Positions 2,452-51,110 of a stretch of 64,000 bases of DNA are shown here, one piece after another. How positions within the stretch are numbered: the stretch's first letter is position 1; the number at the start of each line of letters is the position of its first letter. The notes below the pieces were generated by a model that was not told the origin of the DNA, did no database searches, and saw only the letters and a list, made by a program, of their open reading frames with translations. The stretch comes from an uncultured Flavobacteriales bacterium (GTDB lineage Bacteria > Bacteroidota > Bacteroidia > Flavobacteriales > UBA1820), in NCBI GenBank assembly GCA_938023515.1, contig CALJDR010000022.1, forward strand, positions 27,226 through 91,225. Reading direction: 5' to 3'. The translations under genes and the position numbers were made by a program.

Positions 2452-3806
2452 AGAGTACGGATATGAAAAAATACAGTGCGATGGCGGCAGTCGCCTTTTT
2501 GGCCGCCTTTCCCGGGTATGCCCAGACACAGGTGTACGACCTGAAAGAATGTGTGGAAAAAGGCCTTCGGGACAATTATTCCATCCGGATCGTCCGGGGC
2601 GAAGAGCAAGTGGCCAAAAACAATGCCATCATCGGGAATGCGGGCTACCTGCCTACGCTGGATTTCAGTGGCGGGGGCAGCGGCAGCGTCAACAACAACC
2701 GGAATCGGGCGGCTGCGGACGGGACGATAGACTCGTCGCATGGGGTGACCTCCGAAACGGCCAACGCCGGGCTGACCCTCAACTGGACGGTCTTCGACGG
2801 GCTGGGTATCCAGGCCCAGTACGCCCGGTTGAAGGAGCTCGAGATCATGGGCGAACTCGGCACCCGGATGGCGGTCGAGGATTTTATCGCGGATATTTCC
2901 AGCGAATATTACAATCTGATCCGCCAGCAGACACGCCTTGCCAACCTCCGCTCTTCGCTCGACCTCTCCCGCGAGCGGCTGCGTATCGTCGAGGTGAACT
3001 ACGCTACCGGATCGATGTCCGGACTCGATCTGAAACAAGCCCAGGTCGATTTCAATGCGGACAGTTCGAAAGTGATCAACCAATTGGAGGTCGTGCATGC
3101 CTCCCGCATCCGCCTGAACCGGCTGATGGCTGCCGGAAACGTTGAGGACCCCATTCATGTAAAGGATTCGCTGATCACTCCCGATGTCTCTCTGGACGAG
3201 CGGGAATTGTGGGAAAGCACCCTTTCGTCCAACGTGTCCCTGCAGATGGCCCAGAAAAACCTGTATCTTTCCGAACTGGACCTGAAAAAAGCACGCAGCC
3301 GGAATTATCCCTACGTCAAACTGAATGCCGGGTACGGCTATACCTCCACGTGGAACGGAACCGGAGCAACGGACCTGCAACAGCGTTTGGGCCTTAATTA
3401 CGGGGTGACGGTCGGCATCAATATTTTCGACGGAATGAACCGCCGCCGCGAACAGCGCAACGCCCGCATCCAGATCGACAACCAACAGCTCCGGGTAGAG
3501 GATACCGAACTGGGCCTGAGGGCCGATATGAGCAATCTGTGGATGGCCTACCGCAACAATATCGACCTGTGGAAGCTCGAAAAAGAGAATGTGGTAGTAG
3601 CCGAAGAGAACTATTCCATTGCGATGGACCGTTACAAACTGGGCGACCTTTCCGGTATCGAACTCCGTGAGGCGCAGAACAGCCTGCTGGAAGCCGAAGA
3701 GCGCCTTTCTATCGCCGAATACTCCATTAAAATATGCGAAATATCGCTGCTCCAGCTCAGCGGTTTGATTATCCAGTACATGTACCCTGAAAACTCGCAG
3801 GTATAA
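2448..3806 (+). CDS. TolC-family outer-membrane efflux protein, partner of the RND pump
   Basis: 452 aa with a signal peptide (AAFPGYAQ). The two-repeat OEP architecture shows typical LDLSRERL / LREAQNSLLEAE coiled segments. It is translationally coupled to the RND gene. Confidence 0.85.
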   Translation: MKSTDMKKYSAMAAVAFLAAFPGYAQTQVYDLKECVEKGLRDNYSIRIVRGEEQVAKNNAIIGNAGYLPTLDFSGGGSGSVNNNRNRAAADGTIDSSHGVTSETANAGLTLNWTVFDGLGIQAQYARLKELEIMGELGTRMAVEDFIADISSEYYNLIRQQTRLANLRSSLDLSRERLRIVEVNYATGSMSGLDLKQAQVDFNADSSKVINQLEVVHASRIRLNRLMAAGNVEDPIHVKDSLITPDVSLDERELWESTLSSNVSLQMAQKNLYLSELDLKKARSRNYPYVKLNAGYGYTSTWNGTGATDLQQRLGLNYGVTVGINIFDGMNRRREQRNARIQIDNQQLRVEDTELGLRADMSNLWMAYRNNIDLWKLEKENVVVAEENYSIAMDRYKLGDLSGIELREAQNSLLEAEERLSIAEYSIKICEISLLQLSGLIIQYMYPENSQV

Positions 3807-8192: not shown

Positions 8193-8266
8193 TGACCCCG
8201 GAAGGATTCAAACCTTCAACCTTCAGAGCCGTAATCTGATGCTCTATTCAGTTAAGCTACGGGGCC
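8193..8266 (-). tRNA. tRNA-Arg (anticodon ACG)
   Basis: The reverse complement folds by hand into a 74-nt cloverleaf. It has acceptor GGCCCCG/CGGGGTC, D arm GCTT..GAGC, anticodon stem TCAGA/TCTGA with loop TTACGGC, T arm GAAGG-TTTGAAT-CCTTC and discriminator A. No CCA is encoded. Confidence 0.9.
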
Positions 8267-8450: not shown

Positions 8451-9743
8451 CTAAAATTCGAGTTCGAATACAGTACCTTCGGTGGAAGGTATTATGCGGA
8501 TATTTCCCTCATGACGACGTAGGATTTGGCGGGAAATGCTTAGTCCGATTCCCGAGCCCCCTTCTTTTGTAGTAAAGAACGGCACGAATATTTGCTGAGC
8601 AGTTTCATCGGGTATTCCGGGGCCGTTATCGGCTATGGTTATCAGAATTTTTCCGGTGCGGCCTTTTTTGGCCGTGATATCTATTTTTCCACCTGCCGTA
8701 TTTCCTAAAGCTTCCATCGAGTTTTTGACCAGGTTCATCAATACCTGGGTCAGTAATTTTTCATCCCCATAACCTGTCAATTGGTCTGGTTCTATATATG
8801 TGGTAATGGAAACTTTTTCGCTCGGATTCAATTGAAGGATGCGTTCCAACAGGGAAGAAACGGGGAAAAGAGCCATTTGCGGGTCAGGGATGCGGGTGAT
8901 TTTCCGGTACGAGTCCACGAAAGAAACGAGCGCCTTTCCGGTCGAACTGATCGTTTCCAATCCTTTCCGCAAATCGGTATCTTCTTCCCTTACCAATCCG
9001 GTCAGTGTGTCCGAGAGGGAGGTGATGGGGGTAATGCTGTTCATGATCTCGTGCGTCAGTACCCGGATAAGGCGTATCCAGGATTGTATTTCTTTTTCAT
9101 CGAGTTCTCCTCGTATATCCGATAAGGCCAGGATGCGAAGATCTTTGCCCTTGACCTCTACTTCGGATATAGTGACCGAAAGATCGGCGATACCTCTTTC
9201 ATTGTTTATCTGGCATTGTAGATGGCCGCCTGTGGGAGCGGAAAGAAGCCTGTCGGGGAAATTTTCGTCGAAACTTTTCAATTGGCGCAGATGCGTTAGC
9301 CGTTCTGCGCCGCCGAATAGTTTGAGGGCTGCACTGTTCACCTGATAAACCCTTCCATCGTAATCTGCGATAATTACGCCTGTGGATACGCTTTCCAGGA
9401 TTAGTTCGTAGAATCTTTCCCGTTCGGTTATTTCTGCCTTGGTTTTGGCCATGATATCCTTTATACGGTTTAGTGCTGCATTGAAGAGCATCTCGCTGGT
9501 CGAACCGTTTTGTTCGGAAAATTTGAAATTAAAATCGTCATTTTCCAGCGAATTGAACATAAAGGTCACTTTGTGCAAGTCTTTCCGGTGCAGCCATATA
9601 CCGCGTATGGTAAATATAAGGGAGAGAAAAAGGAGTATGATCGCGGTCGTATACCATTCGGCGGCGAGACAAAATCCCCCTATCCCTGCATATATTACGG
9701 CGGCGAGAATGGAGATGGCCAGATTGTGGGAAGAAATTTTCAC
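8451..9743 (-). CDS. Two-component sensor histidine kinase (NtrB-like partner of the sigma-54 activator)
   Basis: It has an H-box LTHEIMNSITPI, N-box NLVKNSMEA, G1 DNGPGIP and G2 GGSGIGLSISRQIL, with two N-terminal TM segments. The ORF is open to 9839, but that stretch overlaps the upstream gene by 83 nt. GTG at 9743 is the first plausible start after the regulator stop. Confidence 0.85.
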   Translation of the reverse strand: MKISSHNLAISILAAVIYAGIGGFCLAAEWYTTAIILLFLSLIFTIRGIWLHRKDLHKVTFMFNSLENDDFNFKFSEQNGSTSEMLFNAALNRIKDIMAKTKAEITERERFYELILESVSTGVIIADYDGRVYQVNSAALKLFGGAERLTHLRQLKSFDENFPDRLLSAPTGGHLQCQINNERGIADLSVTISEVEVKGKDLRILALSDIRGELDEKEIQSWIRLIRVLTHEIMNSITPITSLSDTLTGLVREEDTDLRKGLETISSTGKALVSFVDSYRKITRIPDPQMALFPVSSLLERILQLNPSEKVSITTYIEPDQLTGYGDEKLLTQVLMNLVKNSMEALGNTAGGKIDITAKKGRTGKILITIADNGPGIPDETAQQIFVPFFTTKEGGSGIGLSISRQILRRHEGNIRIIPSTEGTVFELEF

Positions 9744-9756
9744 GATTCGCAGGGGA

Positions 9757-11115
9757 TCAGAGACCGTATTTTTTGATCTTGTTGTACAAGGTTTGGCGGC
9801 TGACGCCCAGGTGAGAGGCAACCAACGAAAGATTTCCACCGTGGGATTCCATGGCGTTTTTTATCATTTCCCGCTCCATATCCTCGAGTGTAGCATTGCG
9901 TAATACCCCCGCGGGGGCTGGCATTACCGGAGCTAACAACAGGCTTTCAGGTCCTATTTCCGGTTTTTCGGTCATGATGACGGCTTTCTCCATCGTGTGT
10001 TGCAGTTCCCGGATATTTCCCGGGAATGGATATCCGGCGAGCAGAGAGGCTGCCTTTTCTCCGATAGAGAGCCCTGGTTTTGCGTATTTTACAGCATATT
10101 TATCGGTAAAGATACGGGCCAGGGGCAGGATGTCTTCTTTCCTTTCCCGTAGAGGGGGGATATCTATGTGTATCGTATTTATGCGGTATAGTAGGTCTTC
10201 CCTGAAAAGTCCCTGCGTTACCATTTGCGGGAGGTTTCGGTTGGTGGCGCTGATCAGGCGGATGTCCACATCCTGGGGCGTATTGCTTCCCACCCGGACG
10301 ATGCGGCGGCTTTGGAGCGCAGTGAGGAGTTTCCCCTGCAGAAAATAGGAAATATTGCCTATTTCATCCAGGAAAAGGCTTCCTTTGTCGGCTACTTCAA
10401 ATTTTCCGGCGCGGTCTGCTTTCGCATCGGTGAAGGCGCCTTTCACATGTCCGAAAAGCTCGCTTTCGAAAAGGGTTTCGGGTAGGCTCCCCAGGTCGAC
10501 GGAAACGAAGAGTTCTTCGTTCCTTCGGGAGAGGCGGTGTATCTCACGGGCCAGCATTTCTTTCCCGGTACCGTTTTCTCCCGTTATCAGGATATTGGCA
10601 TCGGTCGAAGCTACTTTGCCCACCAGGTTTCGCAGATAGGACATTGGCTGGCTTTCTCCCCAAAACATAGGATTGGAATCATCAAGTTCTTTCCGGATCT
10701 CTTTCAGATGCTTGACCTGACGCTGCTGGTTGCGCAGGTTGTAAGCATTCTGCAATGTGGCTATCAGCCGGTCGTTTTCCCAAGGTTTGACCACGAAATC
10801 CGTCGCCCCATCTTTTATTGCCCGCACAGCCAGATCGATGTCTCCATAGGCAGTAAAAAGCACCACTTGTACGTCGGGGCGCATTTTTTTTATTTCGGAT
10901 AGCCAGAAAAGCCCTTCGTTGCCATTGTTTATGCCGGAAGAAAAATTCATGTCCAACAAAACCACGTCGGGATTGTGTTCCTGCAAGGCTGAATGAATTT
11001 GCGTGGGGGAATTTACCAGGACGGTTTTTTCAAAATACTGCTTCAAAAGCAATTCTAAAGCGGTGAGGATAGATCGATTGTCGTCGACGACTAATATTTT
11101 CCCCTGTTTTTTCAT
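9757..11115 (-). CDS. Sigma-54-dependent response regulator (NtrC family: receiver + AAA+ + Fis-type HTH)
   Basis: The receiver begins KILVVDDN. The AAA+ domain has Walker A GENGTGKE and the sigma-54 contact loop GAFTDA. The C-terminal HTH is SRQTLYNKIKKYGL. The ATG at 11115 (MKKQGK) is preferred over the TTG at 11142. Confidence 0.9.
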   Translation of the reverse strand: MKKQGKILVVDDNRSILTALELLLKQYFEKTVLVNSPTQIHSALQEHNPDVVLLDMNFSSGINNGNEGLFWLSEIKKMRPDVQVVLFTAYGDIDLAVRAIKDGATDFVVKPWENDRLIATLQNAYNLRNQQRQVKHLKEIRKELDDSNPMFWGESQPMSYLRNLVGKVASTDANILITGENGTGKEMLAREIHRLSRRNEELFVSVDLGSLPETLFESELFGHVKGAFTDAKADRAGKFEVADKGSLFLDEIGNISYFLQGKLLTALQSRRIVRVGSNTPQDVDIRLISATNRNLPQMVTQGLFREDLLYRINTIHIDIPPLRERKEDILPLARIFTDKYAVKYAKPGLSIGEKAASLLAGYPFPGNIRELQHTMEKAVIMTEKPEIGPESLLLAPVMPAPAGVLRNATLEDMEREMIKNAMESHGGNLSLVASHLGVSRQTLYNKIKKYGL

Positions 11116-11139: not shown

Positions 11140-11147
11140 CAAAGGTA
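11140..11147 (-). promoter_or_regulatory. Candidate -7 box (TACCTTTG) for the response-regulator/kinase operon
   Basis: It matches TAnnTTTG on the minus strand, 24 nt upstream of the ATG at 11115. Confidence 0.35.
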
Positions 11148-11174
11148 TTCAAAAAATGGACGAAGAAGGATAAA

Positions 11175-11212
11175 TGTCTAAAAAATTTACAGAAGTGTCT
11201 AAAAAATGGACA
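11175..11212. promoter_or_regulatory. Paired 17-bp palindromic sites, candidate enhancer (UAS) for the adjacent NtrC-type activator
   Basis: The sites are TGTCTAAAAAATTTACA (11175-11191) and TGTCTAAAAAATGGACA (11196-11212). Their starts are 21 bp apart, and TGTC/GACA are inverted half-sites. A near-identical pair occurs at 49455-49492. Confidence 0.55.
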
Positions 11213-11276
11213 GTAATGTGTCTTTGGTTTTGGATTAATTTATTGTAAATCATTTATTTGTGGTTTTGGCATGCTT

Positions 11277-11292
11277 TTGGCACGTTTCAGTA
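11277..11292 (+). promoter_or_regulatory. Sigma-54 (-24/-12) promoter of the efflux operon
   Basis: TGGCATGCTTTTGGCA compared with the consensus TGGCAC-N5-TTGC has GG and GC at canonical spacing. It ends 33 nt upstream of the ATG at 11326 and sits about 65 bp downstream of the paired sites. Confidence 0.65.
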
Positions 11293-11325
11293 TAGAATAA
11301 AAACAATTCAAAACAGGAAAAGATT

Positions 11326-12699
11326 ATGCCAGAAAAGATGAAAAGATTGTTATTGCTTTTGTGCGTACTCGGGATATCTTCTGGGGCGGCGGTGGCGCAA
11401 CAAACGGATGGTCATATCTGGTCGCTCGAAGACTGCATGGCCTATGCGGTAGAGAACAGCACAAAGGTGAAAAAACAGGAGTACACAAATGACAGCTACC
11501 GCCACATACGCCGTTCGGCCGTGGCGGATATGCTGCCTTCGCTGTCTGCTTCGGCCAGCGGCCAGTTGACTACCGGACGCGGGATCGACCCGGGCACAAA
11601 TACGTATTCCACCATATCGAATTTCGGCAATTCGTACGGAGTCTATGCTTCGCTACCGGTCTTTAATGGATTTGCCCTTATTAATAAGGTTATAGAGACC
11701 CGGATGCAGATGCGTTCGGGCCAGTCAGAACTACAACGGATAAAGGACGACATCTGTCTGGGCATTGTAGGGGCTTATTATGATGCGGTGTATTATCGCC
11801 AGGCGATGGGCATTGCGCGGGATAAACTGGAAAGGAGCCGGCAGAACGTATACAAAACAAAAAAAATGGAAGAACTGGGCCTGCGAAGCGAAGCGGATGT
11901 GGCCCAGATGAATGCGGCGTTGGTAGCGGATAATTTTCTTTTGGTGCAGCAGGAAAATTCTTACGTCCGGGCGATGATGTCGCTGAAAGACTATATGAAT
12001 TTCCCGACGGAAGATTCCTTGGCGATAGATACGTTGATGAGTGAGAAGTTGACGATCCTGGAAGAATCCCCCGACCGTATCTATGAAAAAGCTTTGGCTA
12101 CCAATCCGACCGTACTTCGTTCGACCTATCAGATGGAGGTCCAAAAAGCAAAGTATTCACAGGCAAAAGGGCGCATGCTCCCCAGCCTTTCCCTTTCGGG
12201 TGGGTACAGTACCAATTATTATACAAACCTTACGGGAGACCGTTCCAAAGTGCGGCCATTCAACACCCAGTTGGACCAGAACAAGGGCGGATCCCTGACG
12301 CTTTCCCTGTCCATCCCGATATTTTCCGGACTTTCCCGCCGTACTACCCTGGCTACCGCCCGCAACAATATGCGGATCGCCGAGCAGGAAAACGAGGAAA
12401 CCCGGCGGGAATTGCGCAATGCGATCGATAAGGCGGTGCTGGAACGCAATTCGCAGGCAAAGCAATACTATCTGGCCCGCCAGCAGGTGGAATCGGATGC
12501 GCTGGCTTACAAGGCTTTTCAGCGGCGGTATGAAGAAGGGCTGGCCTCTTCGCTGGATGTGCGTACCAGTGCCAATACGCTGATGGATTCGCAGCTGAAA
12601 GAACTGAGAGCTTATTTGTACTATCTGTTATATAGTTGTACGGTGGATTATTATAACGGGATCCCGTTGATATCTCCGGAAAAACTGGCTTCACTTTGA
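11326..12699 (+). CDS. TolC-family outer-membrane efflux protein
   Basis: 457 aa with a signal peptide (GAAVAQQ) and OEP repeat structure. It is the first gene of a same-strand operon with an adaptor and ABC components. Confidence 0.85.
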   Translation: MPEKMKRLLLLLCVLGISSGAAVAQQTDGHIWSLEDCMAYAVENSTKVKKQEYTNDSYRHIRRSAVADMLPSLSASASGQLTTGRGIDPGTNTYSTISNFGNSYGVYASLPVFNGFALINKVIETRMQMRSGQSELQRIKDDICLGIVGAYYDAVYYRQAMGIARDKLERSRQNVYKTKKMEELGLRSEADVAQMNAALVADNFLLVQQENSYVRAMMSLKDYMNFPTEDSLAIDTLMSEKLTILEESPDRIYEKALATNPTVLRSTYQMEVQKAKYSQAKGRMLPSLSLSGGYSTNYYTNLTGDRSKVRPFNTQLDQNKGGSLTLSLSIPIFSGLSRRTTLATARNNMRIAEQENEETRRELRNAIDKAVLERNSQAKQYYLARQQVESDALAYKAFQRRYEEGLASSLDVRTSANTLMDSQLKELRAYLYYLLYSCTVDYYNGIPLISPEKLASL

Positions 12700-12727: not shown

Positions 12728-13975
12728 ATGGACAAAGTAATAGAAAAGAAAAAAAGGCTGAATAAAAAACACGTGCCATATATCCTGGGCGGATTGTTCC
12801 TGATTTTAGTGTTGTGGCTGGTTTTTTCAGATCATTCCTCTACGTTGCGTGCAGATAAGAATGCGATCGCCATCGGCGAAGCGGTATATGGGGATTTCAA
12901 TGACTATATCCGCATCACAGGGCAGGTGCAACCCATCACTACCGTCCAACTCAGTCCGCTCGAAGACGGAGTGGTCGATGAAATCCTCATCGAGGAAGGG
13001 GCCCGGGTAAAAAAAGGCGATGTGATCATCCGTCTGAGCAATCCGACCCTTACCCTGTCGATCCTCGACGGAGAGTCGATGTTGGCCGAAAAACAGAATT
13101 CGCTGCGCAATACGGAAATGAACATCGAACAGGAGAAACTTTCCATGCAGCAAAACTTGTTGGAGGCAACGTTGGGCGTGGAGCGTACCCGTCGTAAATA
13201 CGAGCAAAACGGCGAACTGTATAAGGAAAAACTGATCGCCCGGGAAGAATACCTGCAATCCAAAGAGGATTACGAACTGTCCCTGCAGAAGAAGGCTCTG
13301 TTGCTCGAACGGAGGGAGAGGGATTCCCTGTATCGGGTAGATCAATTGGCTAAATTGAGGGAGAGCCTGGGCAATATGACCAAAAACATGGAACTCACCC
13401 GCCAGCGGATGGAAAACCTGAATGTCAAATCCCCGATAGACGGCGAACTCGGCCTGTTGGATGCTGTACGCGGCCAGTCGGTGGGCCGGGGCCAGAAGAT
13501 AGGGCAGATAAACGATTTGTCCGACTATATGGTCCTGGCGATGATAGACGAACATTATATCGACAAAGTGACTACGCACCTCGATGCCTCTTTTGAACGG
13601 CAGGGCGCCCGGTATCCGTTAGAAACAAGGAAAGTATATCCCGAAGTGCGAGAAAGTAAATTTCGCACGGACTTGATATTTTCCGGGGAGCGTCCGGAAA
13701 ATATACGGTTGGGGCAGACTTATTATATAGACCTGCAATTGGGTGAGTCGTCCCAAGCCGTAATGATTCCCCGAGGGTCGTTCTACCAGGCAACCGGCGG
13801 GAATTGGGTGTATGTGGTTTCTCCCGAAGGAGATAAAGCTTACAAGCGGGCTATAAAAATAGGGAGGCAGAATCCTCAGTATTACGAGGTGACCGAAGGG
13901 CTTTCGGCCGGAGAGAGGGTTATTACGTCTTCATATGATTCTTATGGCGGCAACGAAGTATTGGTGCTGAAATAA
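12728..13975 (+). CDS. HlyD/MacA-type periplasmic adaptor (membrane fusion protein)
   Basis: It has an N-terminal TM anchor, a lipoyl-like segment (GDVIIRLSNP), a long coiled-coil and a C-terminal beta-barrel (GERVITSS). Confidence 0.85.
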   Translation: MDKVIEKKKRLNKKHVPYILGGLFLILVLWLVFSDHSSTLRADKNAIAIGEAVYGDFNDYIRITGQVQPITTVQLSPLEDGVVDEILIEEGARVKKGDVIIRLSNPTLTLSILDGESMLAEKQNSLRNTEMNIEQEKLSMQQNLLEATLGVERTRRKYEQNGELYKEKLIAREEYLQSKEDYELSLQKKALLLERRERDSLYRVDQLAKLRESLGNMTKNMELTRQRMENLNVKSPIDGELGLLDAVRGQSVGRGQKIGQINDLSDYMVLAMIDEHYIDKVTTHLDASFERQGARYPLETRKVYPEVRESKFRTDLIFSGERPENIRLGQTYYIDLQLGESSQAVMIPRGSFYQATGGNWVYVVSPEGDKAYKRAIKIGRQNPQYYEVTEGLSAGERVITSSYDSYGGNEVLVLK

Positions 13976-13994
13976 AACACCTTTTTACCATACT

Positions 13995-16346
13995 ATGAAG
14001 CAATTCGTTTATACGGTTCGGTATCTGCTGGCTAATAAAGCGGGTAACTTGGTCAAAATAGTATCCCTTACTTTGGGCCTGGCGCTGGGATTGGTGATAT
14101 TTTCCCAGGTGGCTTTCGAGCGGTCCTATGAGAAATTCTATCCGGATGCGGAGCGGATATGCCGGATACGTATGGAGTACCTGGATCTTCAACAGGGCAA
14201 AGCAGGGGAAAAAGAAGGGCCGCAGGATTCTTATGCGGATGGTTATTATATTTTTCACCCGGCGGCACAGGCTTTGGTGGACAATGTGCCCGAGGTCGAA
14301 GCCGGTACGGTGGTGGAAATGACCGGGAAATCCGATCTTTTCCGGCAGGACGGAGCCCGGTTCCCCGGAAACGCGATCCTGCGGACCGATTCCTCTTTCT
14401 TCAAGTTTTTCCAAATAGAGGTCATCAGCGGCGATCCGGGCAGGGATATGGTACAGAATACGGTCTACCTGTCGCAGGGATTGGCCCGGCGGGTATTCGG
14501 GGCAACGGATCCGGTCGGACAAGTTTTGCATAACAGCAATAAGGAAGCCTATACGGTTGCCGGAGTGTATAAAGATTTGCCTCGGAATACCCACTTGGAA
14601 GCCGATGCGATCCTCCCGCCCTCCACAGGGGGAAAAGAATGGAAAGGTTACCAGGGATATCATGGCTACGTGCGTCTGGCACAGGGTGCCGATCCCGAAG
14701 AGGTCGCCGGCAAATTCGCTATGGCACTCGATCGTTCGGGCGTGCTGAAAGAGATCCAGGACCGTTCGAAAACGAAAGTCGTATTTACTCTCGATCCTTT
14801 GATAGAAAGCCATATGGCGGTGCCAGGGGTATCGTCCCGGAATATACTGCTGGCGGTACTGGGCTTTTGCCTGCTTTTGGCTGCGGTGCTGAACTATGTG
14901 CTTGTGTCGGTATCTTCGCTTTCTGCACGCAGTCGAACGTTGGCCGTACATAAATGCAATGGAGCCCGCTCGTGGGATGTCTTCCGGATGTTCATGTACG
15001 AGACGGGAATTTTGACCGTGGTTTCATGCCTGCTGGCAATACTGTTGATAGCCGGCGGCCGGCAGTGGATACAAACCGTAACGGGGCAGCCCTTATTTGC
15101 TCTCTTTTCTTTGGGAAATCTCTGGGTGGCCGCAATCGTCCTGTTGTGTGTATGGTTGGTTGCAGGGGTGATACCCGGGATCGTTTTCTCATCGGTGGGC
15201 GTGATGTCCGCATTCCGCAGCAATGTTTCTTCCGGGCGGATGCGGTGGAAGACGCTGCTGCTTTTCCTCCAATTCACGGCGGCTACATTCTTGTTGGCGT
15301 TCCTTTTGATCATTATCCGTCAGTACGATTTCATGCTTACCCGGGATATGGGCTACAGGTATGAAAACCTGGTGTATATCGAAACTGCGCATATGTCCCG
15401 CCAACAGGCGGCTACAATTAAGGAAGAGCTCAAAAAGCTCCCGTGTGTCGAAGGGGTTTCCGTTATCGGGCTTTCCACGCCGCTGGACTCCGGCCTGGGT
15501 TGGGAGTTTTACGACGACTCCGGGGAAAACAGGGTGCTGTGGGCCGATATCGAATATGCCGACGAGGATTATCTGGATGTGATGGGAATCGAGCTGTTGG
15601 CCGGTAAGAATTTCGAGCCGGGGAGCCCTCAAAACCATTTGTTGCTCAATGAATCGGCCGTACGGAAAATCGGATGGACAGACAATCCGGTCGGAAAAAC
15701 CCTTGAAAACTATTACGTGGTGGACGGCGTGGTAAAGGATTTCCAGATAGGTACGCTGCATGCCGGGCAGGGAGCCCGTCCGGTGGTGATTTCCAGCGCT
15801 TTCTGGAGTGGAGTGGGCTATATCATGGTCGAACTGTCGCAAGTGAATGCCGCTGCGATCGAACAGGTACGGGAGGCAACCAATAAGGTAGTGCCGGATA
15901 AAATATTCAATATTGTTTCCTATAAGGAGGAACTGGGAAGCCGTTATCGCCAGGAGCTCCTGTTCCGCGACAGCGTAGGGGCCGTATCCCTTTTCACGGT
16001 ATTCATTACGTTGATGGGCCTTATCGGGTATATCGGTTACGAGATGCACCGTCGCCGCAAAGAGATTGCCCTGCGCAAGATCAACGGGGCGACGTTAAAG
16101 GATGTATTGTCCCGGGTTACGATGGGGATAGGGTTTATTTCCTTTTTAGGGGTTTTATTGGGACTTTGTGGGACCTACTATGCGGCGGGGGTATGGCTCA
16201 CCCGGTTCGAGTATAGGGCTCCGGTTTCCCCGTGGCTGTTTGTGGCTTGCGGTTTGACTGTATTGGCGGTCATTGCCGCCACTGTGGTCCTGAAAGCCTG
16301 GAAATCGGCAAATGAAAATCCTGTAAAGGCGATTAAATCGGAATAA
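13995..16346 (+). CDS. MacB-like ABC transporter permease (double FtsX domain, about 780 aa)
   Basis: There are two MacB-periplasmic-core/FtsX modules. The conserved C-terminal FtsX helix block is RRKEIALRKINGATLKDV, and the protein ends NPVKAIKSE. Confidence 0.85.
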   Translation: MKQFVYTVRYLLANKAGNLVKIVSLTLGLALGLVIFSQVAFERSYEKFYPDAERICRIRMEYLDLQQGKAGEKEGPQDSYADGYYIFHPAAQALVDNVPEVEAGTVVEMTGKSDLFRQDGARFPGNAILRTDSSFFKFFQIEVISGDPGRDMVQNTVYLSQGLARRVFGATDPVGQVLHNSNKEAYTVAGVYKDLPRNTHLEADAILPPSTGGKEWKGYQGYHGYVRLAQGADPEEVAGKFAMALDRSGVLKEIQDRSKTKVVFTLDPLIESHMAVPGVSSRNILLAVLGFCLLLAAVLNYVLVSVSSLSARSRTLAVHKCNGARSWDVFRMFMYETGILTVVSCLLAILLIAGGRQWIQTVTGQPLFALFSLGNLWVAAIVLLCVWLVAGVIPGIVFSSVGVMSAFRSNVSSGRMRWKTLLLFLQFTAATFLLAFLLIIIRQYDFMLTRDMGYRYENLVYIETAHMSRQQAATIKEELKKLPCVEGVSVIGLSTPLDSGLGWEFYDDSGENRVLWADIEYADEDYLDVMGIELLAGKNFEPGSPQNHLLLNESAVRKIGWTDNPVGKTLENYYVVDGVVKDFQIGTLHAGQGARPVVISSAFWSGVGYIMVELSQVNAAAIEQVREATNKVVPDKIFNIVSYKEELGSRYRQELLFRDSVGAVSLFTVFITLMGLIGYIGYEMHRRRKEIALRKINGATLKDVLSRVTMGIGFISFLGVLLGLCGTYYAAGVWLTRFEYRAPVSPWLFVACGLTVLAVIAATVVLKAWKSANENPVKAIKSE

Positions 16347-16368
16347 TACATATTATAATCACTATATC

Positions 16369-18768
16369 ATGAAGCAATTTATTTACACGCTCAGGTACCT
16401 GGCAAAGGCGAAGAGTACCAACCTGATCAAGGTCCTGTCCCTTACCTTGGGGTTGGCCCTGGGGCTGGTGATCTTTTCCCAGGTAGCTTTCGAAAGGTCA
16501 TACGATTCTTTCTTCAAAGATTCGGACCGACTTTACCGGGTGAAAGCCCAGTTTATCGACCATAATCAACCGGAGGAAAACGCCGCTTCGGACGATTCCG
16601 GCGGAAAAGGGGACGGAACGGTTACTTATTATGGGGTGTTCTATCCTACGGTACAGACGATGTTGGACAATTTTCCCGAAGTGGAGGACGGCGCTACGAT
16701 CTCCTATCTTACCGGCACCGACCGGCGGAACTATTACCGGGAGGACGGGATGGAGGAGTTTCAGTCCAACCTGGTCTATGCCGATTCGTCCTTTTTCCGG
16801 GTGATGGGCCTGGAAGTGCTCCGGGGCGATCCGGCGAAAGACTTTGTCGAGCCGCTGAAGGTGTTCATTTCCGATGATTTCGCCAAGCGGTTTTTCGGCG
16901 GTCAGGACCCTATAGGGAAGGCCCTTTACAACAACAATAAATACGGCTATGTCGTGGCGGGGGTATTCAAGAAACTGCCCTATAATTCCCATCTGGATTT
17001 CGATGTGATCATGTCCAGGGCTACTCCGTCGGCCACCTGGGGTAGGGGAGACAACTATTTCGGATATGTCCGGCTGAAACCGGGCGCCGATCCGGAAGCG
17101 GTACAGAGTAAATTTGCCGACTATATCCGTCAAAGCGGAGTACTCAAAGCTGCCGAGGATAGAGGATATGAGTTCAAATATACCTTAGAACCTATAACCG
17201 AGGGGCATATCGGGCAGGAGGACGTAAAGGATAAAACCCTGTTGCTTTCCGTGGTGGGGTTGTGCCTGCTGCTGACGTCCGTACTGAACTATGTGCTCAT
17301 ATCGGTGTCCACGCTCTCTTCGCGCAGCCGGACGCTGGCTGTCTATAAATGCAATGGGGCCAAGCCGGGGGATATATTCCGGATGTTCATGTACGAAACG
17401 GCGGTGCTGACCCTTGTATCTACCGCCCTGGCCGCATTGTTGATATTTGTCTTCCGGGGAAGGGTGGAAATGCTCGCCGGACAGCCGGTTTCGGCCTTGT
17501 TCGCCGTTTCCAACCTTTGGATGGCAGGAGTGGTGTTGCTGGTAGTCTGGATCGTGGCAGGCGTGATACCCGGTTGGGTTTTCTCCCGGGTGAGCGTGAT
17601 GAAGGCCTTCCGGTCTACCTCTTCTGCCGGGAGAATGTGGTGGAAGAGTATCCTGTTGTTCCTACAGTTGGTGGCGGCTTCTTTTATCCTGACGTTCCTG
17701 GCGGTGATCATCCGGCAGTACAGCTATATGACGACTAAGGATCTGGGATATAAATACGAGAACGTGGTTTATATATGGACCCTTTTCACCAATCTGGATG
17801 AACAGCAAACCCATACGGTGCGGGATGAGGTGAAAAAACTACCGTTCGTAGAGAACGTATCTCTGGTAGGGCATGCGATGCCTCTGTTTAATTTTTACGG
17901 GCAGGCACGGATACCTAATGAAAACCAGGAAACGATATTTACTCCTTATATCGAGAGAGCCGATGAAAATTACCTGGACGTGCTGGGGATCAAACTCGAA
18001 GCCGGGGAAAATCTGGCTCCCGACTCTCCTATGGAGCAGGTGCTTATCAACCAGGAGGCTGTCCGTCAGTTAGGATGGCTGGACAATCCTATCGGCCAAA
18101 CCCTCGGCCAGACACCGCTTACAGTACGGGGTGTGGTAGGGGACTTCCATATCGGCAGCGTGCTTGAAAATCCCGTTCCGCAGCCAGTGATGATCATGCA
18201 ACTGATGAAACCGACCGAAAACAATCCGTTTGTGGTGGCGTACATCATGATGCGTTTTACCGAAGTGACACCCAAAAACATTGCCCAGCTGCAACAGGCG
18301 GTAGCCCGGGTATTGCCCGATAAGATTGTGAAAATAAAAACGTACAAAGAAGAGTTGCTCAGTCAATACCAAAAGGAATTGATGACCCGCGACAGTATCG
18401 GAGTGACGGCTATTTTTACCGCGCTTATTACCCTGATGGGCCTGATCGGTTATATCAGCTACGAGATGCGTCGCCGCCGAAAGGAAATAGCCCTGCGCAA
18501 AGTCAATGGGGCAACAGTGAAAGAAATACTGGTATTGATCCTATTGAATATATCCGTCGTATCTGTGGCAGGAGTAGCATTTGGTTTGGCTGCGGCATAT
18601 TATATGGGCGGTAAATGGCTGATCAATTTCCCGGACAAGCTCCCGTTTTCCCCGTGGCTGTTCGCAGGGTGTGCACTGGCTATTTGGGTAGTTATCGCGC
18701 TGGTGGTGATCCTGCAGTCCTGGAGCGCCGCGCGGGAAAATCCGGTTAAATCGCTCAAATCCGAATAA
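16369..18768 (+). CDS. MacB-like ABC transporter permease, tandem paralog
   Basis: The first ~45 aa are nearly identical to the previous gene (LSLTLGLALGLVIFSQVAFERSY). It shares the same architecture and C-terminus (RRKEIALRKVNGATVKEI ... NPVKSLKSE). Confidence 0.85.
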   Translation: MKQFIYTLRYLAKAKSTNLIKVLSLTLGLALGLVIFSQVAFERSYDSFFKDSDRLYRVKAQFIDHNQPEENAASDDSGGKGDGTVTYYGVFYPTVQTMLDNFPEVEDGATISYLTGTDRRNYYREDGMEEFQSNLVYADSSFFRVMGLEVLRGDPAKDFVEPLKVFISDDFAKRFFGGQDPIGKALYNNNKYGYVVAGVFKKLPYNSHLDFDVIMSRATPSATWGRGDNYFGYVRLKPGADPEAVQSKFADYIRQSGVLKAAEDRGYEFKYTLEPITEGHIGQEDVKDKTLLLSVVGLCLLLTSVLNYVLISVSTLSSRSRTLAVYKCNGAKPGDIFRMFMYETAVLTLVSTALAALLIFVFRGRVEMLAGQPVSALFAVSNLWMAGVVLLVVWIVAGVIPGWVFSRVSVMKAFRSTSSAGRMWWKSILLFLQLVAASFILTFLAVIIRQYSYMTTKDLGYKYENVVYIWTLFTNLDEQQTHTVRDEVKKLPFVENVSLVGHAMPLFNFYGQARIPNENQETIFTPYIERADENYLDVLGIKLEAGENLAPDSPMEQVLINQEAVRQLGWLDNPIGQTLGQTPLTVRGVVGDFHIGSVLENPVPQPVMIMQLMKPTENNPFVVAYIMMRFTEVTPKNIAQLQQAVARVLPDKIVKIKTYKEELLSQYQKELMTRDSIGVTAIFTALITLMGLIGYISYEMRRRRKEIALRKVNGATVKEILVLILLNISVVSVAGVAFGLAAAYYMGGKWLINFPDKLPFSPWLFAGCALAIWVVIALVVILQSWSAARENPVKSLKSE

Positions 18769-18796: not shown

Positions 18797-19477
18797 ATGA
18801 TTAAAATAGAAAACCTTTCGAAAAGTTTCCGCACGGAAGAAATAGAAACCATCGCACTGGACAAGGTATCCATCGAAGTGAAAGATGGGGAATTCGTAGC
18901 CATCATGGGCCCTTCGGGGTGCGGGAAATCCACCCTGCTCAATATCCTGGGATTGCTCGACAATCCGACGGGCGGAAAATATTACTTCATGGATAAAGAG
19001 GTGGGCGGCCTGAAAGAAAAAGACCGTACCAATTTCCGCAAGGGAAATATCGGTTTCGTATTCCAGAGCTTCAACCTGATCGACGAGCTCAACGTATACG
19101 AAAATGTCGAGCTCCCGCTGATCTATCTCAAGATAAAAGCCTCCGATCGCAAAAAGAAAGTGATGGATATTCTTAAACGCATGGGGGTATCCCATCGGGC
19201 CAGCCATTTCCCCCAGCAGCTTTCCGGAGGACAGCAGCAGCGTGTGGCCATTGCCCGTGCGGTAGTCGCAGGGCCGAAACTCATCCTGGCGGACGAGCCG
19301 ACCGGTAACCTCGACTCCAAGAACGGAGAGGAGGTAATGGCGCTTCTGTCCGAGCTCAACCGCGAAGGAACCACGATCGTGATGGTGACGCACTCCCAGC
19401 ACGATGCTTCGATCGCACACCGCGTGATCAACCTATTCGACGGCCATGTGGTGGCCCAGGTGAATGATATGTTATAG
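18797..19477 (+). CDS. ABC transporter ATP-binding protein (MacB/LolD-type)
   Basis: It has Walker A GPSGCGKST, signature LSGGQQQRVAIARA, Walker B LILADEPTGNLD and the H-loop in VTHS. Confidence 0.92.
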   Translation: MIKIENLSKSFRTEEIETIALDKVSIEVKDGEFVAIMGPSGCGKSTLLNILGLLDNPTGGKYYFMDKEVGGLKEKDRTNFRKGNIGFVFQSFNLIDELNVYENVELPLIYLKIKASDRKKKVMDILKRMGVSHRASHFPQQLSGGQQQRVAIARAVVAGPKLILADEPTGNLDSKNGEEVMALLSELNREGTTIVMVTHSQHDASIAHRVINLFDGHVVAQVNDML

Positions 19478-19504
19478 TGACTGGATTGTTTATTGTTACT
19501 TTTG

Positions 19505-19539
19505 TACCGCGGGGGGATTTATTCCTCTCGCGGTATTTT
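19505..19539 (+). terminator. Rho-independent terminator after the ABC operon
   Basis: TACCGCGGGGGG-loop-CCTCTCGCGGTA forms a stem, including G-U pairs, followed by TTTT. Confidence 0.55.
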
Positions 19540-49454: not shown

Positions 49455-49492
49455 TGTCTAAAAATTGTACAATATTGTCTGAAAAATGGACA
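49455..49492. promoter_or_regulatory. Second pair of 17-bp TGTC-N9-(G/T)ACA sites, candidate UAS of the same activator
   Basis: The sites are TGTCTAAAAATTGTACA (49455-49471) and TGTCTGAAAAATGGACA (49476-49492), with starts 21 bp apart. The order is the same as at 11175-11212: the distal site ends TACA and the proximal site ends GACA. Confidence 0.5.
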
Positions 49493-49545
49493 TTTTTCGG
49501 GCGGACGTGAAAATTACTGATTTGGTAGTCAGAATATTATTAGGC

Positions 49546-49561
49546 TGGCATGTTTTTTGTA
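49546..49561 (+). promoter_or_regulatory. Sigma-54-like -24/-12 element (imperfect -12)
   Basis: TGGCATGTTTTTTGTA has the -24 TGGCA and correct spacing, but the -12 dinucleotide is GT rather than GC. It lies about 54 bp downstream of the paired sites and 110 nt upstream of the ATG at 49671. Confidence 0.4.
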
Positions 49562-49638
49562 TTTTGTAAAAAGGCAAAACAGGAGAGGAAAAGGTGTAAC
49601 TTTTTTCTTCCCTCGATAGTCTAATACTGAAACATAGA

Positions 49639-49670: not shown

Positions 49671-51110
49671 ATGAAAAAATGGTTGTTTTTATGGGTTTGC
49701 CTGTTGCCGATAGCGGGAGTGTGTGCCAAAGAAAAGGCTGCTGTCGGTGCGAAGGTCGATGAGCGGGTAGAGTTATTGAGCATCGTGTTCCGTCTGGCTG
49801 GTGCGCAGGAATATATGGCGAACGATGCCAAAGCCTACGTGGCCGACATCGAAAAATGGTTCGGGCCCTACAAGCAGGCTGCCCTTGTACAGTATGCGAA
49901 AAAGGTGCGCAGCCAATCCGGGATCGGCTACGATGCGGTGGCCCGGATGGCGGTACACCTGGAAGGGGAGGGCGGCAAGTATCGCCTGCCAAAAAACACC
50001 CTTGCTTCGTTGTGTGGCGATAGTCGGTGGAATAAAAAGAATGCCCAACAGTTTGTACGGCTGCTGAATGATTTTTATAAAAAGACCCGTTTTGACAAGT
50101 TCTTTAAAGAACATGAAGGCTGGTATAAGCAGATGACCGACCGATTCGACAATCAGATCGATTTCAACCGAGACTGGTACCCGGCATTCTACGGCGAACG
50201 CCCGGAAGGCGATTACCGCGTTATCCTGGGTTGTTCCAACGGACCCAGCAATTACGGTCCTTCTGTCGTTTCGGACGATGGCAAGAAAACGGTATATGCC
50301 GTTATGGGTTGTTGGGGATTCGATGCAGATACGGATTTGCCGGATTTTTCGACGGCTGTTTACGCCGCGACATTGATCCACGAGTTCAACCATTCGTTCG
50401 TCAACCACCTGATGGAAGAGGATGGTAATAAATCCCGTATGGAAGAAGCAGGTAAGAAAGTCATTACGGCGCTGAAGGACGAAATGTCGTCCCAGGCCTA
50501 TCCCCAGTGGTCTACGGTTTTCAACGAAGCGATCGTGCGTGCGGCCGTAGTGCGTTATATGCGCGACAACGGCTCTTCGCAGCAGGAGATAGACCAGGAG
50601 ATACGGACGCAGTGCAGCCGGTATTTCCTGTGGACGGCTGGGCTGGACAGTCTGTTGGGCGTGTATTCCGCCAATCGGGATAAATACCCGTCGCTGCGGA
50701 GTTTTTACCCGCGCATTATCGAGTTCTTCGACTCTGTGGGAGTGCATATCGATGAAATGAAAGCGGATTACCTGGCGCTTTGCCCGAAAGTGGTGAGCAT
50801 TTCACCCGATTTGAACGGCCGGGACGACGTAGACCCTTCGATCACGGAGCTAAAGGTTGTTTTCGACCGCCCTATCTTGGTTAACGCGCGCAATGCAGCA
50901 GGATTGATGGGGATAGACGGGTTGACGCATCCTTCAGGGGGGCGTAAAGACCGGGGAGAGGCCGAAGAAGAGTCGGATCATATGGTTTATTCCCTGAAAC
51001 TCAAACCGGATACCGAGTATGGTTTTACAGTGATCGGTTTCGCGGCGGCAACTAAAGAGGGATACCGCATCCAACCGCAGACCGTAAAGTTTAAGACCCG
51101 GAAAGAATAA
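49671..51110 (+). CDS. Secreted DUF4932-like protein with HExxH motif (putative zinc metalloprotease) and C-terminal Ig-like domain
   Basis: It has a signal peptide and the N-terminal block VDERVELLSIVFRLAG. The LIHEFNHSF HExxH motif lies at 50379-50393. The C-terminal ~120 aa look like a beta-sandwich. Confidence 0.7.
   Translation: MKKWLFLWVCLLPIAGVCAKEKAAVGAKVDERVELLSIVFRLAGAQEYMANDAKAYVADIEKWFGPYKQAALVQYAKKVRSQSGIGYDAVARMAVHLEGEGGKYRLPKNTLASLCGDSRWNKKNAQQFVRLLNDFYKKTRFDKFFKEHEGWYKQMTDRFDNQIDFNRDWYPAFYGERPEGDYRVILGCSNGPSNYGPSVVSDDGKKTVYAVMGCWGFDADTDLPDFSTAVYAATLIHEFNHSFVNHLMEEDGNKSRMEEAGKKVITALKDEMSSQAYPQWSTVFNEAIVRAAVVRYMRDNGSSQQEIDQEIRTQCSRYFLWTAGLDSLLGVYSANRDKYPSLRSFYPRIIEFFDSVGVHIDEMKADYLALCPKVVSISPDLNGRDDVDPSITELKVVFDRPILVNARNAAGLMGIDGLTHPSGGRKDRGEAEEESDHMVYSLKLKPDTEYGFTVIGFAAATKEGYRIQPQTVKFKTRKE

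Follow-up and report, generated by a model that had tools for sequence, protein, structure and literature searches.

How is a MacB-type efflux operon switched on in a member of the Bacteroidia? The question is raised by a stretch of 64,000 nucleotides (nt) from an uncultured Flavobacteriales bacterium (assembly GCA_938023515.1, contig CALJDR010000022.1), which we analysed as a whole and call the window. Here the divergent control region 11140–11325 separates the genes of an NtrC-family regulator and a sensor histidine kinase, read leftward, from five genes for a tripartite efflux system, read rightward. We interpret this region as a classical enhancer combined with a sigma-54 promoter that together would switch the efflux operon, and put the probability of this interpretation at about 0.8. 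The rival explanations considered below (a different protein at the sites, a promoter of the primary sigma factor, autoregulation alone, and similarity by repetition or chance) are unlikely even when taken together.

Paired dyads upstream of a sigma-54-type promoter

The control region contains two 17-base-pair (bp) dyads, the upstream activating sites (UAS) A (TGTCTAAAAAATTTACA) and B (TGTCTAAAAAATGGACA). Both were found at the coordinates given in the original prediction, with their starts 21 bp apart. This distance corresponds to two helical turns, so both sites point to the same side of the double helix. The inverted TGTC and GACA half-sites described at the same time hold in full for site B, which is a perfect TGTC-N9-GACA dyad, whereas site A is imperfect (TGTC...TACA). 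Such sequences exceed the chance level in the window: the 17-mer occurs four times if up to three mismatches are allowed, compared to 0.13 expected occurrences, and the exact TGTC-N9-GACA dyad also occurs four times, compared to 0.54. The arrangement has the geometry of an enhancer, with two dyads on one helical face 80–150 bp upstream of a promoter.

The promoter is a -24/-12 element (TGGCATGCTTTTGGCA) with GG and GC at the canonical sigma-54 spacing. Its presence and its spacing had been recognized before, but not its position: it lies at 11267–11282, 10 nt away from the 11277–11292 assigned to it originally. The distances change as well, since TGGCATGCTTTTGGCA begins 54 nt after site B instead of ~65 bp and ends 43 nt, not 33 nt, before the ATG of the TolC gene at 11326. 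Compared to TGGCAC-N5-TTGC the element shows one departure per side (T for C at -21 and G for T at -14); its -12 half spans 11278–11282. Canonical sigma-54 geometry predicts a transcription start 11–13 nt past the C at -12. The efflux leader of ~33 nt folds with -0.4 kcal/mol, no better than shuffled sequences, and thus has no stable structure. Typical -24/-12 sigma-54 promoters have been reported in Bacteroidetes (PMC9723704).

Conservation in regulator-ortholog loci

We examined 80 loci (L001–L080) encoding relatives of the regulator with 54–90% identity. The divergent layout, with the regulator and kinase genes on one side and TolC-HlyD-(ATPase)-MacB on the other, is retained in ~58 of them, and syntenic loci were obtained from Alistipes, Odoribacter, Culturomica, Muribaculaceae, Phocaeicola/Bacteroides and Prolixibacteraceae. 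Two contigs labelled Eggerthellaceae (L005) and Acutalibacteraceae (L011) carry a Bacteroidales-type locus near-identical to L009 and L010 and are probably mis-binned in their assemblies.

For a comparison of the control elements, 63 regions were aligned on the -24 element. An ungapped profile of column information was blurred by shifts of 1–2 bp, hence each element was searched separately by its offset and compared to shuffled sequences. A perfect TGTM-N9-KACA site A is present in 45 of the 63 regions (0.1% in shuffles) and a site with at most one mismatch in 57 (1.8% in shuffles), almost always at an offset of -92 or -93 from the -24 element. Site B was found with at most one mismatch in 47 regions versus 2.3% in shuffles, at offsets from -69 to -72. 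The spacing between the two sites is characteristic of the clade: 21 bp in the relatives of the window, 22 bp in Phocaeicola and 23 bp in Prolixibacteraceae. The pooled site matrix reads T-G-T-(C/A)-(A/T)-A-W5-T-(T/A)-(G/T)-A-C-A, and the family consensus of the 17-bp dyad is TGTCWA-W5-TWKACA. Searching for the composite of a site followed by a promoter at 85–99 bp yielded 58 occurrences in ~1 Mb compared to 3–9 in shuffles, nearly always at the expected intergenic position. A lack of TGTC-N9-GACA sites in orthologous regions had been named beforehand as a result that would speak against the original prediction; the sites are conserved, and so is their fixed geometry.

The promoter is conserved along with the sites, and its distances from the gene and from the enhancer are fixed. 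In 83 distinct promoters the matrix is T-26 G-25 G-24 C-23 A-22 Y-21 ... T-15 (G>T)-14 G-13 (C>A>T)-12 A-11, with 100% conservation of G-25, G-24 and G-13. In L019 the efflux operon is located 3.5 kb from the regulator gene and the module is still present, and the window itself contains a second copy 38 kb away from the first (see below): the module tracks the target operon, not the regulator gene.

Modules in metagenomes precede MacB-type efflux genes

We scanned metagenomes with the pattern TGTCT-N8-KACA-N4-TGTCT-N8-GACA-N50–58-GGCA, which imposes no condition on the neighbouring genes. The scan yielded at least 118 stretches; the 80 loci analysed comprise 82 instances with 52 distinct sequences, and all metagenome counts given here and below refer to the matches listed. 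In 51 instances the product of the first downstream open reading frame (ORF) is a MacB/FtsX permease, in 15 a TolC protein and in 5 an ABC ATPase. In ten of the remaining instances the ORF is missing or truncated, and one unrelated gene follows a low-complexity chance match. Thus 71 of the 72 readable downstream ORFs belong to these three classes, and the association of the module with MacB-type efflux genes is near-exclusive. The consensus of the sites in this set is a perfect palindrome, TGTCTAAT-N-ATTAGACA. Furthermore, a -12 element with an invariant G at -13 emerged from these modules although the scan had set no condition at this position.

On some contigs two or three modules stand in front of different permease genes (OGEN01000006.1, for example, carries L106 twice and L113). 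As more than one copy occurs per contig, the modules make up a regulon, and we regard the scan as strong evidence for a trans-acting regulon that would be devoted to MacB-type efflux and would include several MacB-type operons per genome in other Bacteroidales. An ortholog of the regulator (58–64% identity) is encoded in 20 of the 80 loci as well.

The other 60 loci have no regulator gene within the fetched stretch, which could indicate that the dyads are operators of a different factor, either a repressor or a second activator encoded elsewhere, while the adjacent regulator recognizes something else or needs no specific site. The form of the dyads would suit such a factor too, TGT-N11-ACA being a generic type of target for helix-turn-helix (HTH) proteins. 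However, sites distant from the regulator gene are to be expected in a trans-acting regulon, and loci that were retrieved via the regulator carry the sites in nearly all syntenic cases. The distance between sites and promoter is fixed within 1–2 bp across orders, which fits an enhancer with a face-of-helix constraint and not a repressor of a divergent promoter, and a location 80–120 bp upstream of the predicted start would be a poor one for a repressor. We consider operators of another factor improbable. From their adjacency and co-occurrence we infer that sites A and B form an enhancer bound by the adjacent regulator.

A further arrangement was observed in three gut metagenome loci (L121, L128 and L161). 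Here the UAS pair and TGGCACGCTGTTTGCA are followed by a second TGGCATGCTATTTGC ~110 nt later and, ~90 nt past TGGCATGCTATTTGC, by a GGGAGCA...TGCTCCC-TTTT terminator; the interval contains no long ORF. This element is a candidate for a sigma-54-dependent small RNA or micropeptide of the same regulon.

An IHF-consensus-like element between enhancer and promoter

Between the enhancer and the promoter we looked for sites of the type WATCAANNNNTTR. This IHF consensus, also written WATCAR-N4-TTR, is derived from E. coli. In most cases an element resembling WATCARNNNNTTR begins 19–20 nt before the -24 element. Of the 63 aligned regions, 14 have it in perfect form (0.4% expected) and 36 with at most one mismatch (8.6% expected). 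Among the distinct metagenome modules, 18 of the 52 carry it at -19/-20, and it is absent from many instances. The copy in the window, AATCATTTATTTG, may be a site for a DNA-bending protein. A literature search on an IHF-type protein gave nothing relevant, and no search for a DNABII gene was made in the organism. We know of no IHF in Bacteroidia, and to our knowledge the protein is uncharacterised in the phylum.

The regulator–kinase pair and the efflux operon

The features of the window are compiled in Table 1. Pfam searches bore out the genes named in the original prediction, i.e. an activator with a GAFTDA-type AAA+ domain and a Fis-type HTH, a histidine kinase and the series TolC-HlyD-FtsX-FtsX-ATPase.

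Table 1. Positions of the control elements and genes in the window
Feature	Position	Strand	Remarks
Upstream activating site A, TGTCTAAAAAATTTACA	11175..11191	+	centre at ~-110 from predicted start
Upstream activating site B, TGTCTAAAAAATGGACA	11196..11212	+	centre at ~-89 from predicted start
IHF-consensus-like element, AATCATTTATTTG	11248..11260	+	one mismatch from WATCARNNNNTTR, the E. coli IHF core consensus
Sigma-54-type -24/-12 promoter, TGGCATGCTTTTGGCA	11267..11282	+	GG at 11268-11269, GC at 11280-11281
Predicted transcription start	11292..11294	+	from canonical sigma-54 geometry
-7 box, TACCTTTG	11140..11147	-	reverse complement of CAAAGGTA; matches TAnnTTTG
NtrC-family response regulator/enhancer-binding protein	9757..11115	-	452 amino acids; Pfam: REC, AAA+ sigma-54 interaction domain, Fis-type HTH
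Sensor histidine kinase	8451..9743	-	Pfam PAS and HATPase_c; hydropathy, start context
TolC-like outer-membrane channel	11326..12699	+	first operon gene; Pfam OEP
HlyD/MacA-type periplasmic adaptor	12728..13975	+	Pfam HlyD_3, HlyD_D23; NCBIfam DarC-like, below cut-off
Duplicated MacB_PCD/FtsX permease	13995..16346	+	783 amino acids; Pfam; NCBIfam ADOP-like, below cut-off
Second duplicated MacB_PCD/FtsX permease	16369..18768	+	799 amino acids; Pfam, NCBIfam
ABC ATPase	18797..19477	+	final operon gene; Pfam ABC_tran
Intrinsic terminator closing the efflux operon	19504..19536	+	14-bp stem
Second module, site A', TGTCTAAAAATTGTACA	49455..49471	+	
Second module, site B', TGTCTGAAAAATGGACA	49476..49492	+	21 bp after A'
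Second module, IHF-like element, AGTCAGAATATTA	49527..49539	+	one mismatch from WATCARNNNNTTR; same -19 offset
Second module, -24/-12-like element, TGGCATGTTTTTTGTA	49546..49561	+	starts 91 bp after site A'
DUF4932 protein	49671..51110	+	signal peptide, HEFNHSF motif; Pfam; second predicted target

The regulator matches Response_reg, Sigma54_activat and HTH_8 with Pfam values of 2e-20, 6e-66 and 5e-17, respectively, and its true ATG is located at 11115 (11142 in the mechanical ORF). None of the NCBIfam equivalogs reaches its cut-off; the bit scores and cut-offs are 381/503 for PrsR (PEP-CTERM), 355/714 for AtoC, 330/559 for NtrC and 323/760 for ZraR. With every score below the curated cut-off, an identity as AtoC, ZraR, NtrC or PEP-CTERM PrsR was ruled out. 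The top full-length relatives in the PDB are NtrC4 (4l4u, E 2e-87) and NtrC1 (1ny5, E 1e-82) of Aquifex aeolicus, which show the same architecture of REC, AAA+ and HTH domains but belong to a different phylum and are only distantly related in sequence. The window protein has the L1 loop GAFTDA, as do 64 of the 80 orthologs; the loop reads GSFTDA in 13 and GAFTGA in one. The Phe-Thr core of this sigma-54-contacting loop is retained in GAFTDA and GSFTDA, which together account for 77 of the 80.

The kinase gene likely starts with a GTG at 9743, 13 nt past the stop codon of the regulator gene. Its product has two N-terminal membrane helices with a loop of a few residues between them, followed by cytoplasmic PAS, DHp and HATPase domains, and a matching N-terminal architecture was found in 17 orthologs. 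According to the hydropathy profile there is no periplasmic sensor domain; therefore the signal would be perceived within the membrane, in the cytoplasm via the PAS domain, or via a partner protein. A tRNA gene lies directly downstream of the kinase gene (8193–8266, minus strand). An Rfam scan of the window returned one tRNA only and no RNA element in the efflux or DUF4932 leader.

The genes of the efflux operon are separated by gaps of 19–28 nt. Permease, ATPase, HlyD adaptor and TolC channel are united in one predicted operon, which is the composition of a MacB-type (type VII) tripartite ABC efflux system. Beyond the operon a gene for a GH20 hexosaminidase is oriented convergently. The window also contains a separate RND efflux system at 10–3806, consisting of an AcrB-family pump cut by the window edge and an OEP channel; a module of the paired-dyad/sigma-54 kind is absent there.

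The probable promoter of the regulator genes and the case for autoregulation

A scan for sigma-70 promoters was set aside as unsuited to promoters of Bacteroidetes. The -7 box of the Bacteroidetes primary sigma factor has the consensus TAnnTTTG, and TACCTTTG on the minus strand, which matches it, is probably the promoter from which the regulator and kinase genes are transcribed; orthologous regions retain CAAAGNTA at the corresponding position. The original prediction of such a box near site A was correct as to its location (11140–11147, 27 nt from the site), but the autoregulation held possible on these grounds found no comparative support. Between this box and site A, at 11152–11162, the region repeats AAAAAATGGAC, an 11-mer identical to the right half of site B. 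The repeat is not conserved in L001, the closest relative, and may be a remnant or a weak half-site.

The main role of the sites could be autoregulation, with the TAnnTTTG promoter of the regulator-kinase operon repressed or activated through them and the efflux operon affected only secondarily. Site A starts 27 nt upstream of the -7 box and beside the expected -33 region, and the additional copy of AAAAAATGGAC lies still closer to the box, both of which would be in line with this explanation. Yet no sites were found upstream of those regulator genes that do not adjoin an efflux operon (L006, L008, L013, L015, L017, L020 and others), which argues against a conserved autoregulation. Moreover, the module occurs without an adjoining regulator gene in L019, at the second copy in the window and in most of the metagenome instances, and the extra half-site has no counterpart in L001. 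We regard autoregulation as the main function of the sites as very unlikely.

A second module upstream of a DUF4932 gene

The second module (49455–49561) sits between a terminator and a DUF4932 gene and repeats the order of elements of the first; its two sites account for two of the four 17-mer matches in the window. Two copies of an arrangement of ~105 bp in a single 64-kb window might be explained by a repeated or mobile intergenic element, or by chance. However, the two modules have only the sites and the promoter in common, whereas their 54-bp spacers are unrelated; functional blocks shared across a diverged spacer are the signature of regulatory motifs and not of a repeat element. Only 0.13 single-site matches are expected per window, and the arrangement persists in families whose regulators share only 55–66% identity. 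The repeat or chance explanation is effectively refuted, and we interpret the second copy, like the first, as a regulatory module.

The product of the DUF4932 gene carries a signal peptide and a HEFNHSF motif of the HEXXH type, which 12 diverse homologs share without variation; Glu286, 45 residues further on, is also invariant. These features suggest a secreted zinc metallopeptidase, and DUF4932 as a whole is probably an uncharacterised family of such secreted enzymes. A search of the PDB by sequence found no solved relative.

A second type of promoter was identified at this gene. All six DUF4932 upstream regions that we inspected (L081–L086), including those without a sigma-54 module, have in common a GTAAC-N17/18-GTCTAA-like promoter of the extracytoplasmic function (ECF) sigma type. 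In the window it is composed of TGTAAC (49595–49600), an 18-nt gap and GTCTAA (49619–49624), so that the gene seems to be equipped with tandem ECF-type and sigma-54 promoters. Sigma-54 control of DUF4932 would at best be lineage-specific and layered on an older promoter. The DUF4932 leader, which as a whole folds with -21.9 kcal/mol (z = -2.3), contains a moderate hairpin at 49580–49614 (GGAGAGGAAAAGG...CUUUUUUCUUCCCUC) that overlaps the -35 box of the ECF-type promoter. As the hairpin lacks a subsequent U-tract, a function as terminator was rejected.

Observations against a sigma-54 switch

Several observations weigh against the proposed switch. The gene rpoN was not found in the 64-kb window, and the -24/-12 pattern as such is not enriched there: 38 matches with up to two mismatches compare to 52 expected ones. 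The significance of TGGCATGCTTTTGGCA thus derives from its position and its conservation, not from the quality of the match. In the 83 promoters the -12 position is C in 62%, A in 19% and T in 15%, which departs from the canonical form, and position -14 is G in 54%, so that the -12 half mostly reads TGGCA and not the canonical TTGCA. In the second module, TGGCATGTTTTTTGTA has T for C at -12; the resulting GT at -13/-12 recurs at the efflux promoter of L001, which is the closest relative. The L1 loop of the regulator is GAFTDA, the canonical form being GAFTGA, and the link between regulator and sites comes from adjacency and co-occurrence. Finally, the second module is degenerate in the two DUF4932 loci closest to that of the window (L081, with an 88% identical protein, and L082, with 82%) and absent from the more distant ones, which share the ECF-type promoter; therefore we do not claim DUF4932 as a conserved member of the regulon.

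Some of these points could also mean that the efflux operon is read from a Bacteroidetes primary-sigma promoter and that TGGCA-N7-TGGCA is a direct-repeat site for another protein. The non-canonical -12 element and the lack of rpoN in the window would agree with this, and TTTATTTG at ~11252–11259 differs from TAnnTTTG by one mismatch only. In contrast, each of the 83 promoters has GG at -25/-24 and G at -13 with precisely the spacing of sigma-54 promoters, the -12 half being unselected in the metagenome set, and the aligned regions show no conserved TAnnTTTG on the efflux strand. The only known role of the product of the divergent gene is the activation of the sigma-54 holoenzyme. A primary-sigma promoter has little probability in our judgement, and the efflux operon is predicted to depend on sigma-54.

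Proposed mechanism

In the mechanism that we propose for the sigma-54 switch, transcription would proceed in both directions from the control region. Leftward, the TAnnTTTG-type primary-sigma promoter would drive the regulator-kinase operon. Rightward, the sigma-54 promoter at 11267–11282 would start transcription near 11293 and produce one five-gene transcript extending to the terminator at 19504–19536. Sigma-54 RNA polymerase would wait at this promoter as a closed complex until dimers of the phosphorylated regulator bind to the two 17-bp dyads at ~-110 and ~-89, which share a helical face, and, once bound, assemble the AAA+ ring. By looping of the ~55 bp of AT-rich DNA in between, possibly aided by a bending protein at the WATCAR-N4-TTR element, the ring would contact the polymerase, and ATP hydrolysis would then open the promoter. 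The same regulator would act in trans on the second module at 49455–49561. What the analysis demonstrates is the presence of the sequence elements, their geometry and conservation, and their association with MacB-type efflux genes; in this scheme the dependence on sigma-54, the identity of the binding protein, the looping, the operon structure and the signal are deduced from sequence.

Relation to known systems

The arrangement resembles the classical enhancer-dependent promoters of the NtrC/NifA type, such as glnAp2 and nifH, the latter with a UAS of the form TGT-N10-ACA and an IHF site. In common are a two-component or NifA-type AAA+ activator, two sites on one face of the helix, TGT...ACA dyads ~80–130 bp upstream of a GG-N10-GC promoter and an IHF-consensus-like element between them. 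In contrast to these systems, the dyad described here is TGT-N11-ACA (17 bp), the host belongs to the Bacteroidia, the target is efflux instead of nitrogen metabolism, the -12 element is mostly TGGCA and the activator carries the GAFTDA loop.

With regard to its parts, the efflux system corresponds to MacAB-TolC of E. coli and to the darobactin exporter DarBCD, which likewise combine an ATPase, a MacB_PCD/FtsX permease, an HlyD adaptor and a TolC channel. It differs in that the permeases are duplicated (~790 amino acids) and separate from the ATPase, with two paralogs in one operon, and the NCBIfam equivalog scores of the window proteins are all far below the cut-offs. We know of no description of sigma-54 regulation for MacAB.

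A 2025 in-silico survey of regulons found sigma-54 promoters enriched upstream of COG0577 FtsX-like permeases in Bacteroidia (PMC12316311), which is the same link between sigma-54 promoters and FtsX/MacB-type permeases in the same bacterial class. As far as the accessible part of that survey goes, it was confined to the scoring of promoters and gave no activator or operator. Compared with that part, the present analysis adds the activator family, the 17-bp dyad, the fixed geometry of enhancer and promoter and a regulon of several operons. The main text of Francke et al. 2011 (PMC3162934) contains no match for words beginning with Bacteroid, for efflux or for FtsX. In the literature, which is incompletely searchable, we found no description of the operator, the fixed enhancer geometry or the two-component system, and this is absence of evidence only; the statement in the original prediction that no description of the motif was known stands to the same extent.

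The Bce modules of Firmicutes (BceRS-BceAB) consist of an OmpR-type regulator, an FtsX-family transporter and a kinase with two helices and essentially no extracellular loop. As in these modules, an FtsX-family ABC transporter adjoins a two-component system here, and the kinase of the window has two membrane helices with a very short loop. The differences are that the regulator is a sigma-54 activator and not a member of the OmpR family, that the kinase has a cytoplasmic PAS domain and that the permeases, instead of being of the BceB type, belong to the duplicated MacB_PCD/FtsX proteins and work with HlyD and TolC partners. The system is not a member of the Bce group and at most an analogue of it. 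Because the kinase has no periplasmic domain and nearly all of the regulon in gut Bacteroidales is made up of paralogous MacB-type permease operons, it is conceivable, although we think it unlikely, that the system is a sigma-54-based analogue of the Bce modules in which the transporters, or a perturbation of the membrane, report substrate load to the kinase. If this were true, a single enhancer-binding protein would determine how much is made of an entire set of efflux pumps and, in the organism of the window, also of a secreted HEXXH peptidase. Dominant gut commensals would then possess a dedicated defence circuit against antimicrobial peptides or toxic amphiphiles, including an IHF-like bending site.

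Significance

Conceptually little is gained, since the mechanism is a textbook one: the proposed switch is of an ordinary type, conserved across the Bacteroidia, and its operator sequence had apparently gone unrecorded. We regard the finding as well supported, of moderate-to-low surprise and useful for regulon prediction in gut Bacteroidales. It provides a very widespread and uncharacterised family of sigma-54 activators of the Bacteroidia with a concrete, testable operator, TGTCWA-W5-TWKACA, paired at 21–23 bp and located 92 bp upstream of the -24 element. The predicted regulon comprises MacB-type efflux operons, often several per genome, in groups abundant in the human gut such as Alistipes, Odoribacter, Phocaeicola and Muribaculaceae. 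Pumps of the MacB type are candidate determinants of resistance to bile, drugs and peptides of host or microbial origin, and knowledge of their switch would enable reporter constructs, screens for inducers and the prediction of regulons from sequence alone.

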